A DNA stretch of 53,073 nucleotides, from positions 1 to 53,073 of the forward strand of contig JAYUDV010000328.1 in assembly GCA_043739565.1 (NCBI GenBank), given 5' to 3'. The DNA comes from Chloracidobacterium sp. Lineage in GTDB: Bacteria; Acidobacteriota; Blastocatellia; Pyrinomonadales; Pyrinomonadaceae. The notes beneath the pieces are model-generated. The model ran no database searches, was not told the DNA's origin, and saw nothing but the letters and a program-made list of their open reading frames with translations. Of this stretch, positions 37,310 through 39,160 are shown piece after piece (position 1 is the first letter of the stretch; every line of letters starts with the position of its first letter). The translations under genes and the position numbers were made by a program.

Positions 37310-38455
37310 ATGACAACACAAAATCCATTAGGACTGAAAAAGATACATCACGTTGAGTTTTACGTCGGCAATGCCAAGCAGGCGGAGTTTTATTATCGCA
37401 AGGCGTTTGGGTTTTCGCGCGCCGGCTACTCGGGGCTTGAGACGGGAAATCGCGAAGTGACGAGCTATCTGATGCGGCAAACCAAGGTCAATTTTGTGTT
37501 GACGACGCCGCTCTCTCCTGAGCATCCGGCGGCGGAGCATATCAAGCGGCATGGCGACGGCGTTCGCGATATTGCGTTTCAGGTTGAGGATGCCGATCAT
37601 GCATTTAACGAGGCCGTGAAGCGCGGTGCAACGGCGGTAACGCAGCCGCATGATTGGAAAGACGAGAATGGCTCTGTCCGTCACGCGGCGATCGCGACCT
37701 ACGGCGACACGATCCATTCGTTAATCTCTTATGGTGTCAGTAGCCCGCACGTGAGTAAGGGATCACCTAACGGTCATTCAACATACGATTATCATGGGCC
37801 ATTTCTGCCGGGCTTTGTCGAACAAAAGGTCGAAGGCGACGGCGTCGGCATCATGCTCGTCGATCATATCGTCGGCAATGTCGAGCTCGGCAAGATGAAC
37901 TACTGGTGCGATTTTTACCGCGACGTGCTCGGATTTTTCCGCTACATCACGTTTGACGACAAGGACATCTCGACCGAATATTCGGCCCTGATGTCGATCG
38001 TTATGTCGGACGGCGGCCACAACATCAAATTCCCGATCAATGAGCCCGCCGAGAGCAAAAAAGGCATTTCGCAGATACAGGAATACATCGATTACTACCG
38101 TTCAGCCGGTGCCCAGCACGTTGCTCTGCTCTGCAAAGACATCCGCCAGTCGGTCGCAAAATTGCAGGCCAACGGCGTCGAATTCCTGACCGTCCCGGAT
38201 ACATATTACGACGAACTTCCATCACGAGTAGGCGACATTGACGAAGACATCGACGACCTAAGACGCCTCGGCATTCTGGTCGACCGTGACGACGAAGGCT
38301 ATCTGCTCCAGATCTTTACCAAGCCGGTCGAGGACCGCCCAACCGTATTCTTTGAGATACTCCAGCGTAAGGGATGCAAAGGTTTCGGCAAGGGCAATTT
38401 TAAAGCGTTGTTTGTCTCGATCGAGGAAGAGCAACGCCGCCGGGGAAATCTTTAG
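37310..38455 (+). CDS. hppD: 4-hydroxyphenylpyruvate dioxygenase
   Basis: [17 protein letters not shown], two VOC modules, C-terminal [35 protein letters not shown]. Carries the 28-nt repeat insert at 37734-37761. Confidence 0.95.
37734..37761 (+). repeat. 28-nt repeat unit embedded in frame in hppD
   Basis: GTGTCAGTAGCCCGCACGTGAGTAAGGG, encoding VSSPHVSKG. It sits in a segment ([16 protein letters not shown]) that looks like extra sequence relative to my recollection of bacterial HPPDs. Confidence 0.85.
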
Positions 38456-38487
38456 GAAAATAGACCGATAGCGGTTATATTCTTGTT

Positions 38488-38760
38488 GTGCTGTTTGATT
38501 GGGACAAAAAGAAGGCTGCGAGCAACCTTGCGAAACACAAAGTTTCGTTTGAAGAAGCCGCGACGGTTTTCAGCGACACGCTTTCAGATACGTTTGATGA
38601 CCCTGACCATTCCGCCGAAGAACGTCGGTTTCTTATCATCGGACATTCTGACAAAAGCAGGCTGTTGTTTGTTTCGCACACGGACGACGGAGAGATCGTT
38701 CGTATTATAAGTGCGAGAGAACCTACACGCCGAGAACAAAAATCTTATGAACAAGGATAA
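38488..38760 (+). CDS. brnT: BrnT-family (DUF497) toxin
   Basis: GTG start. (M)LFDWDKKKAASNLAKHKVSFEEAATVFSD...RFLIIGHSDKSRLLFVSHTDDGEIVRIISAREPTRREQKSYE. Confidence 0.8.
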   Translation: MLFDWDKKKAASNLAKHKVSFEEAATVFSDTLSDTFDDPDHSAEERRFLIIGHSDKSRLLFVSHTDDGEIVRIISAREPTRREQKSYEQG

Positions 38761-38977
38761 AAAAATTATTGGCGAGGATGAAATGCGACCTGAATATGAC
38801 CTTTCGCAACTGAAGGGCAAAGTTCGGGGTAAATACGTCGAACGTTATCAGGCGGGAACGAACCTGATTTTATTGGAGTCCGACGTGCAAGCGGCGTTTC
38901 CTGATTCCGGGGCTGTAAACGAAGCGTTGCGAATGTTGATGAAAGTCGCCCGCCGGCAGGTTCACGAACAGGCCTGA
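38747..38977 (+). CDS. Antitoxin partnered with BrnT (BrnA-like)
   Basis: ATG 38747 overlaps the brnT 3' end by 14 nt. Contains the EYDLSQLKGKVRGKY motif that I recall being common in antitoxins adjacent to DUF497 toxins. Confidence 0.6.
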   Translation: MNKDKKIIGEDEMRPEYDLSQLKGKVRGKYVERYQAGTNLILLESDVQAAFPDSGAVNEALRMLMKVARRQVHEQA

Positions 38978-38983
38978 TACTTA

Positions 38984-39160
38984 GGCAACCGCGACGAAGA
39001 AACGTATCTGCTCCAAATCTTCACCAAACCGGTAGAGGACCGCCTGACCGTCTTCTTTGAGATTCTTCAACGAAAAGGCTGCAAAGGCTTTGGCAAGGGG
39101 AATTTCAAAGCACTTTTTGCGTCTATTGAAGAAGAACAACTTCGCCGCGGAAATCTCTAA
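38984..39160 (+). pseudogene. Orphan diverged copy of the last 58 codons of hppD
   Basis: Translates as [58 protein letters not shown]-stop, versus the hppD C-terminus [57 protein letters not shown]. The track ORF 38981-39190 (minus) is antisense to it. Confidence 0.85.

Follow-up and report, generated by a model that had tools for sequence, protein, structure and literature searches.

Insertion with long target duplication has been described for restriction-modification complexes in Helicobacter, Haemophilus, Neisseria, Campylobacter and other genera (Nobusato 2000, Gene 259:99; Furuta 2010, PMC2853133). Its repeats measure tens to hundreds of bp, vary in length and often span the start or the stop of the target; there are no mobile-element genes and the mechanism is unexplained (Nobusato 2000; PMC2853133). 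The repeats which we compared from Table 2 of the second report are near-identical, for example 44/46 and 47/47 (Furuta 2010, PMC2853133). We will discuss a related structure in a stretch of 53,073 nt, contig JAYUDV010000328.1 of assembly GCA_043739565.1, which we call the window. It belongs to Chloracidobacterium sp. (Pyrinomonadaceae), a soil acidobacterium, and comes from a metagenome with many related hppD alleles side by side. In the window a small cassette with a BrnT-family toxin gene is found between the 3' end of hppD and a second, diverged copy of that end. Two other cassettes lie in the same way between copies of the ends of a membrane-protein gene and of hmgA. We call the three repeat pairs a (membrane-protein gene), b (hppD) and c (hmgA); copy 1 is the one inside the gene and copy 2 is the orphan. 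The position of the three cassettes between diverged gene-end copies suggests that they enter and spread by ordinary homologous recombination and not by a transposase or an integrase. The gene mobility seen here is of a known but unexplained kind, with new features.

The likeness to insertion with long target duplication is apparent in several features. The inserted unit is small, of the post-segregational-killing type, and has no transposase or integrase. The direct repeats exceed 30 bp (about 208 nt in pair a, 182 nt in pair b and 111 nt in pair c) and are single-copy at empty sites. Here these empty sites come from nine related species in the case of hppD and from locus L089 in the case of the membrane gene, where the gene end is single-copy; none of them is from the same species (L-numbers designate the related loci which we have compared with the window). 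The repeats often span the start or the stop codon, so that the target gene stays intact, and their length varies by event: in different genomes the hppD 3' orphans begin at codons -58, about -46 and about -38, while repeats at 5' ends extend 85–110 nt into the gene. There are also differences. The cargo is not restriction-modification: we find BrnT, RelE/HigA-like, PIN, PemK, DUF433/DUF5615, ORF6N and RibD_C genes. The host belongs to the Acidobacteriota, and the insertions are stacked and frequent across the whole family. Finally, our repeats are strongly diverged and almost only at synonymous sites, unlike the near-identical repeats of the table cited above. This divergence indicates that the arms are different alleles, which points to homologous recombination, one-sided at the origin and two-armed in the spread, rather than to a staggered cut.

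Two other processes are the nearest mechanistic relatives. The minimal mobile elements of Neisseria are alternative cassettes which different strains have at one site between conserved genes and which are swapped by homologous recombination in their flanks. They share with our case the different cassettes at one junction (here that of hppD and hmgA), the mosaic recombination tracts and the absence of mobile-element genes. They are not known to duplicate the flanking gene end, a duplication through which, in our case, one and the same target serves both arms. The second process is homology-facilitated illegitimate recombination in natural transformation, which reportedly combines a one-sided homologous anchor with an illegitimate join. 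It would make the first junction of cassette and orphan without a recombinase; however, its reported products usually delete recipient DNA and do not duplicate it.

Integrative elements and integrons are less similar. Phages and islands use att sites in tRNA genes or in genes such as guaA. As in the window, the incoming DNA restores the gene end and the native end is displaced, but here an integrase is absent, the crossover position is not fixed, the targets are many and the cassettes measure only 0.5–0.8 kb. Toxin-antitoxin cassettes are common in chromosomal integrons, and the tight small cassettes of this family, often toxin-antitoxin pairs and sometimes in repeat-separated arrays (L019), are comparable. 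In contrast with integrons, intI is absent, the 0–20 nt from the last stop to the repeat contain no attC, and the repeats themselves are pieces of host genes. In the literature we have found no report of toxin-antitoxin cassettes with duplicated gene ends.

The movement of chromosomal toxin-antitoxin modules without mobile-element genes is a long-standing open question. Scars at gene ends make a mechanism testable, in which the conserved gene's own end is the homology arm, and they keep a readable history of acquisition at a hotspot. They also extend long target duplication, so far unexplained, from restriction-modification to toxin-antitoxin systems and add evidence that the arms are different alleles.

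The hppD end and the BrnT cassette

We searched for repeats by a six-frame self-comparison of the window and by a self-comparison of 82 related loci. The proportions of synonymous (pS) and non-synonymous (pN) differences were obtained by Nei-Gojobori counting, with a binomial test against neutrality; 57 codons were used in pair b. For hppD we compared 80 orthologous loci of species representatives, all of them metagenome-assembled genomes of Pyrinomonadaceae or Blastocatellia, the best with 92% protein identity. The features of pair b are the following.

37310..38455, + strand: hppD (4-hydroxyphenylpyruvate dioxygenase), full length, 381 aa; Pfam Glyoxalase/Glyoxalase_5; 80 orthologous Pyrinomonadaceae loci
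38282..38463, + strand: repeat copy 1 of pair b, the final 58 hppD codons, the stop and about 8 nt; ungapped alignment to 38987-39168
38488..38760, + strand: BrnT-family toxin gene, 90 aa, GTG start; Pfam BrnT_toxin PF04365, E 1e-26; PDB 7vd7, E 2e-10
38747..38977, + strand: putative antitoxin, 76 aa, with a 14-nt overlap with the toxin gene; from its position and its conservation beside BrnT
38987..39168 (codons to 39160), + strand: orphan hppD 3' end, copy 2 of pair b; alignment to copy 1

The two copies in pair b have 79% identity over their 182 nt, and the longest identical run is only 11 nt (self-tblastn E-value 7e-28). The homology begins six codons upstream of the TAT codon from which the initial annotation had counted, at 38282 and 38987, where the proteins read DRDDEG and NRDEET. 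Past the stops the likeness runs for about 8 nt (GAAAATAG versus GAAATTAG), close to the 10 nt given before. In the 51 codons from TAT (38300 and 39005) a codon by codon recount gives the same 23 synonymous and 3 non-synonymous differences (P>L, V>A, R>L), and the codon table reproduces the different stops, TAG and TAA. Over the whole 57 codons there are 27.8 synonymous and 8.2 non-synonymous differences (pS 0.73, pN 0.06, p = 2e-12). The protein is conserved at 89% while the synonymous sites are saturated, with a third-position identity of 0.49. Such a pattern is not that of a copy decayed in place, as the initial annotation had maintained. It is also a warning: through recombination alone a pseudogene fragment can mimic strong purifying selection.

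The cassette itself has the layout of a BrnT/BrnA pair, toxin first and a small overlapping partner gene downstream. The toxin match spans the full PF04365 model, the PDB entry 7vd7 is described as 'toxin', and an independent assembly gives an identical gene call for 38488-38760. Its 76-aa partner has no match in Pfam, NCBIfam or PDB, and it is kept beside BrnT in five genomes; its relatives include those in L081, L014, L029 and L061. The orphan starts 9 nt past the antitoxin stop, is in frame with its TGA and has no start codon.

Downstream of the orphan the spacer which precedes hmgA is found.

39168..39232, + strand: hppD-hmgA spacer hairpin, three CACGAAW and three WTTCGTG in three helices; fold -31 kcal/mol; same hairpin in nine cassette-free species
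39245..40609, + strand: hmgA (homogentisate 1,2-dioxygenase), full length; Pfam HgmA_N and HgmA_C

The perfect 17-bp inverted repeat noticed initially (39171-39187 and 39204-39220) is real and forms part of this longer hairpin. The ancestral order hppD-hairpin-hmgA proposed from it is confirmed by other species. The hppD-hmgA tandem is present in 61 loci: nine of them have an empty spacer of 77–88 nt made of the same CACGAAW hairpin, and the other 52 have inserts of 124–5525 nt. Since 52 of 61 tandem loci carry inserts, the hppD-hmgA junction is an insertion hotspot. The sequence conservation of the hairpin suggests a protein-binding operator besides a terminator. A similar pair of heptamer motifs is found at 22568-22620, between convergent genes at about 22.6 kb.

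Two further pairs in the window

The initial annotation was right in substance, with two alleles and the correct ancestral order, but it was incomplete: the phenomenon is general. Two more sites in the window with the same structure had been overlooked, at hmgA (40487-41384) and at 29521-30682.

29318..29722, + strand: membrane-protein gene, conserved, 134 aa; more than 2000 homologues
29521..29728, + strand: repeat copy 1 of pair a, the final 67 codons of the membrane-protein gene and a few nt; self-comparison
29815..30048, + strand: putative antitoxin of the PIN cassette, 77 aa; from its position in the cassette 29815-30468
30049..30468, + strand: PIN_3 / TIGR00305 toxin; Pfam PIN_3, E 6e-17; NCBIfam TIGR00305, E 7e-19
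30475..30682, + strand: orphan membrane-protein 3' end, copy 2 of pair a; starts 6 nt past the PIN stop
40487..40597, + strand: repeat copy 1 of pair c (hmgA 3' end); self-comparison; pS 0.70, pN 0.04, p = 3e-8
40658..40948, + strand: RelE/ParE-type toxin (upstrm_HI1419 / Gp49 family); NCBIfam TIGR02683, E 6e-40; Pfam Gp49
40954..41253, + strand: helix-turn-helix antidote protein (dnstrm_HI1420, HigA-like); NCBIfam TIGR02684, E 1e-36; Pfam PF21716
41274..41384, + strand: orphan hmgA 3' end, copy 2 of pair c; self-comparison, substitution pattern

The three pairs have a common anatomy and an excess of synonymous differences. All three cassettes are oriented as their target gene, and a short spacer of promoter size follows the left copy. 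On the right side the distance from the last stop codon to the orphan is 6 nt in a, 9 nt in b and at most 19 nt in c. The copies of pair a have 86% nucleotide identity (pS 0.25, pN 0.10), and most variant residues of its orphan are natural polymorphisms of functional homologues. The orphan of pair c has a 1-nt indel ahead of its former stop; it may begin at 41254, with an internal deletion.

In L091 (4162-4359, which corresponds to 30479-30676 of the window) the orphan of pair a is publicly annotated as a 65-aa protein. Gene callers thus label orphans as small proteins, which inflates the counts of small hypothetical proteins. A weak internal repeat at 15503/15908 was a false positive: it lies inside one large protein and is unrelated.

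Upstream of hppD we find another gene of interest.

36726..37301, + strand: ORF6N-domain gene, 8 nt upstream of hppD; Pfam ORF6N, E 4e-34

This ORF6N (KilA-N-like) gene is a further cassette at the hppD hotspot. A homologous cassette in L012, L038 and L054 has an orphan hppD 5' end before it, and in L038 the hppD ATG shares nucleotides with the ORF6N stop. Upstream of the window gene a search for such an orphan 5' end gave no signal above the shuffle control.

Recurrence in Pyrinomonadaceae

About 20 further cassettes between two copies of a gene end were found in the 82 related loci. They are situated at the 3' and 5' ends of hppD and hmgA and also at other genes. The first nucleotide of the 5' repeats falls in an interval from 25 nt before the start codon to 10 nt after it. 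In most of these pairs, the 5' ones included, pS is well above pN; L044, with pS 0.56 and pN 0.03, is an example. The cargo consists mostly of toxin-antitoxin pairs (BrnT, RelE/HigA-like, PIN, PemK/MazF, DUF433+DUF5615); ORF6N, an AbiEii-like nucleotidyltransferase, RibD_C and unknown genes are found as well.

A single hppD 3' site may hold various cassettes, namely BrnTA, PIN/VapBC-like, PemK/MazF-like or RibD_C, and the codon at which the orphan starts differs. For example, L081 (hppD protein 93% identical) has BrnTA and L082 (92%) has a PemK pair, each with its own orphan. In L019 three cassettes are stacked after hmgA, with an hmgA orphan behind each of them.

9755-9857, 11583-11712 and 12385-12460 of L019: hmgA 3' orphans, which separate a PemK pair, a 520-aa TPR protein and an AbiEii-like nucleotidyltransferase

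This stacked array may record the order of insertion.

As a class the orphans are decaying scars and not genes, since that of pair b has no start codon and those of L014, L081, L038 and pair c of the window show stops, frameshifts or deletions. A peculiar case is found in L065 (8746-8829 and 9492-9575). After a 5' insertion its working hmgA begins with a new MNNI from the cassette side, and the orphan retains the native hmgA start (MEL) with its upstream hairpin.

Origin of the two hppD ends

The 79% identity of the two hppD copies in the window is the level found between different species of Pyrinomonadaceae. The initial annotation had left room for the two copies being each other's closest relatives; instead, each has nearer relatives in other genomes. 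For copy 1 the nearest are those of L070 and L036 (86%, against 79% for its partner), and for the orphan the hppD ends of L082, L063 and L007 (82–85%). Both copies of each pair therefore sat in working genes of different lineages until fairly recently.

The C-terminal part of the hppD protein is nearly invariant in the family: the ends from the 80 loci are 92–100% identical to copy 1. The orphan residues N, T, L, A and L are private. They are missing from the closest hppD proteins (P0001-P0004) and from the 80 hppD ends. A protein search with the orphan peptide gave only short "hppD" fragments, the best with 89%, and the deviant residues were not found in them. Three "hppD" fragments on long contigs were rejected as true orphans; they lie among fragmented gene calls, as in frameshifted long-read assemblies. 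The private residues fit a limited decay after release from selection. We also looked for a 5'-to-3' gradient of decay within the orphans, a measure which is confounded by their unequal lengths.

A distant relative, L014, has the junction of antitoxin and orphan at the identical hppD codon (-58) and with no change of frame, although its hppD has only about 78% nucleotide identity with the window and its BrnTA 73%. The entire hppD-BrnTA block is also collinear with L081 at 84%. Judging from the sequences, this junction appears either to predate the lineages of the window, L014 and L081 or to have spread among them. The L014 orphan has 68% protein identity, a stop codon and an 11-nt deletion, and that of L081 is truncated and has indels, while the window orphan is intact. 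For this reason the junction seems older than the sequence of the orphan. A subsequent homologous crossover in which the orphan was renewed would fit this age difference; probably this happened, and not a single co-import.

Recombination in this region is directly apparent. L081 and L082 come from the same JGI sample and have different downstream cassettes; their hppD genes are 100% identical over nt 342–570 (about 230 nt) and only about 80% elsewhere, which directly attests a very recent homologous exchange in the population. L081 and L019 have a common tract of 94% that spans the hmgA end, the cassette, the orphan and the flank, although the 5' parts of their hmgA are only 73–87% identical. 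In the window the identity of hppD to its nearest relatives falls downstream of about nt 700 from 0.81–0.93 to 0.68–0.78. The region is demonstrably a recombination mosaic.

In the Logan contigs of four runs only the filled form was found for this species, and all contigs which encode the exact hppD or membrane protein carry the cassette. Joints that skip the cassette (40452>41280 and 38373>39089) come from relatives with about 85% identity and are thus uninformative. A metagenome scan for the orphan end plus its flank matched only the L003-type species. In the comparison of both copies with the 80 species representatives by nucleotide identity, third positions are saturated.

Possible mechanism and alternatives

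We regard it as somewhat probable that BrnT and the other two window cassettes are the cargo of a recombination-driven process without an integrase, equivalent to insertion with long target duplication. We infer the recombination steps and their order from what has been observed directly: the repeats and their substitution pattern, the recurrence, the absence of mobile-element genes, the ancestral empty site, the mosaic recombination and the decayed orphans of relatives. A cassette situated a few nt outside a conserved gene, past its stop or before its start codon, would travel together with part of this gene. It would be integrated by homologous pairing at the gene end, the far side would be joined illegitimately within the resident gene, and the resident gene end would remain as the orphan. 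Once in place, both repeats could serve as homology arms for the same conserved gene in further spread. If a chromosome with the cassette recombined, by a crossover in its orphan, with the intact gene end of a diverged chromosome that has no cassette, the cassette would reach a new background, with the orphan as right-hand homology arm. Seen from the other side, the same crossover would refill the orphan with sequence which had until then been selected in a working gene. Such refilling would explain that the two hppD ends are as diverged at synonymous sites as between species while the orphan is near the consensus protein. Its five or six odd residues would be the decay since the crossover, and the orphan would have no function.

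The alternative closest to the initial annotation is a single import, in which a break in the hppD 3' end, or an incoming strand, was repaired from a diverged hppD-BrnTA donor and the far end was joined illegitimately at codon -58. Copy 1 would then come from the donor, and the orphan would be native and untouched. Indeed the orphan adjoins the native hairpin and hmgA, as copy 1 adjoins the cassette; over the last 300 nt or so, the divergence of the window hppD from L081, L082 and L001 exceeds that among these three by about 6%, and the substitution pattern fits two functional alleles. That one copy derives from a diverged allele stands, but its arrival together with BrnTA in one event is doubtful, since the junction is shared with L014 and the block is collinear with L081. 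An old neutral orphan should hold dozens of replacements, as those of L014 and L081 do, and it has five or six. Its G+C content at third codon positions (GC3), 0.51, is also further from the 0.65 of the host hppD than the 0.63 of copy 1. We consider a single import unlikely. Still less is to be said for miniature integrative elements mobilised in trans, with an attP that mimics the end of the target gene and repeats that are attL and attR. The layout agrees, with the end restored by the element and the native end displaced to the far side, the arms are diverged like att sites, and an 11-nt identical stretch is found at 38300, near the upstream repeat boundary. But the targets are many unrelated genes, at 5' and 3' ends alike, the junctions have no common sequence motif, and the inner boundary at the hppD 3' end lies at three different codons (-58, about -46 and about -38) according to the event. 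Such variation at one target argues against a site-specific recombinase. Our survey of the cassettes and the 30 largest open reading frames of the window, which have ordinary housekeeping functions, found no integrase, transposase or intI. The only RNA genes in the window are two tRNAs far from the cassettes; there is no tRNA target, and Rfam gives no explanation. These elements seem to us quite improbable. Integron cassettes were rejected, as there is no intI and the 6, 9 and at most 19 nt from the last stop to the orphan leave no room for attC.

A duplication in place followed by divergence would require that the orphan has stayed protein-like, either through a function of its own by read-through of the antitoxin TGA or because copy 1 keeps repairing it by gene conversion. 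The orphan has no start codon. Its reading frame agrees with that of the antitoxin stop codon, a relation which is expected in one case out of three by chance and has been inherited along with the junction. Long identical stretches in the pairs of some relatives (L018 and the 5' pair of L038) suggest conversion or recent duplication; in pair b, however, conversion would have erased the synonymous differences, and we find a pS of 0.73 and no identical run above 11 nt. The damage in the orphans of L014, L081, L038 and pair c, together with the fact that each copy is nearer to relatives elsewhere than to its partner, makes this alternative very improbable. An assembly chimera of two strains joined at a shared hppD 3' sequence might be feared in a metagenome with so many co-occurring related hppD alleles. 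But the stretch 37337-39735 and the remaining junctions are spanned by Logan contigs from the four runs without any difference, the identical gene order is found in an independent ENA assembly with all junctions covered, the same architecture appears in unrelated studies, and an assembler could not bridge pair b through its 11-nt run. There is hardly any chance that the structure is an artefact.

Several observations weigh against the recombination-driven process which we favour. Informative sites do not tell which copy is foreign: compared with L081, L082 and L001 they split 16 versus 14 for hppD, and compared with L089 they split 14 versus 19 for the membrane gene. GC3 is 0.51 in the orphan, 0.63 in copy 1 and 0.65 in the remaining hppD, a difference which is not significant; it hints slightly at the orphan as the foreign copy, while the contiguity with the native hairpin favours it as the native one. 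The collections searched contain no filled and empty site from one species, and the inserted unit and the foreign copy are accordingly defined only indirectly. A recognisable orphan is present at only about 6 of the 52 filled hppD-hmgA sites; many insertions may arise otherwise, or their scars may no longer be visible. The last open reading frame of more than 10 independent cassettes ends 0–20 nt from the right-hand repeat or reads into it, and such tight right-hand ends are not predicted by random illegitimate joining.

A wider and rather doubtful possibility is that Pyrinomonadaceae run a RecA-driven analogue of the integron. Cassettes with toxin-antitoxin or defence genes would take along part of a conserved host gene, usable as a portable homology arm, insert at gene ends, pile into arrays of cassettes and orphans that record the order of acquisition, and spread to any genome with the conserved gene, whatever lies downstream. 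The tight right boundary might then reflect a defined mobile intermediate, so far undescribed.

Other segments of note in hppD and hmgA

Two segments inside the genes also deserve mention. In hmgA there is an in-frame tandem array of 33 nt at 39859-39891, formed by 4.7 copies of the heptamer CAATCCG. Its contig depth in the source metagenomes is 1700–3000x, so the repeat is extremely common, and contigs of relatives skip 39745-39899 around it. In hppD the region 37720-37870 contains a variable in-frame insert, which may be a small repeated in-frame element. Metagenome depth climbs there to 90–300x, and contigs of relatives skip 150–250 nt. The hppD protein of close relatives has 369–430 aa.

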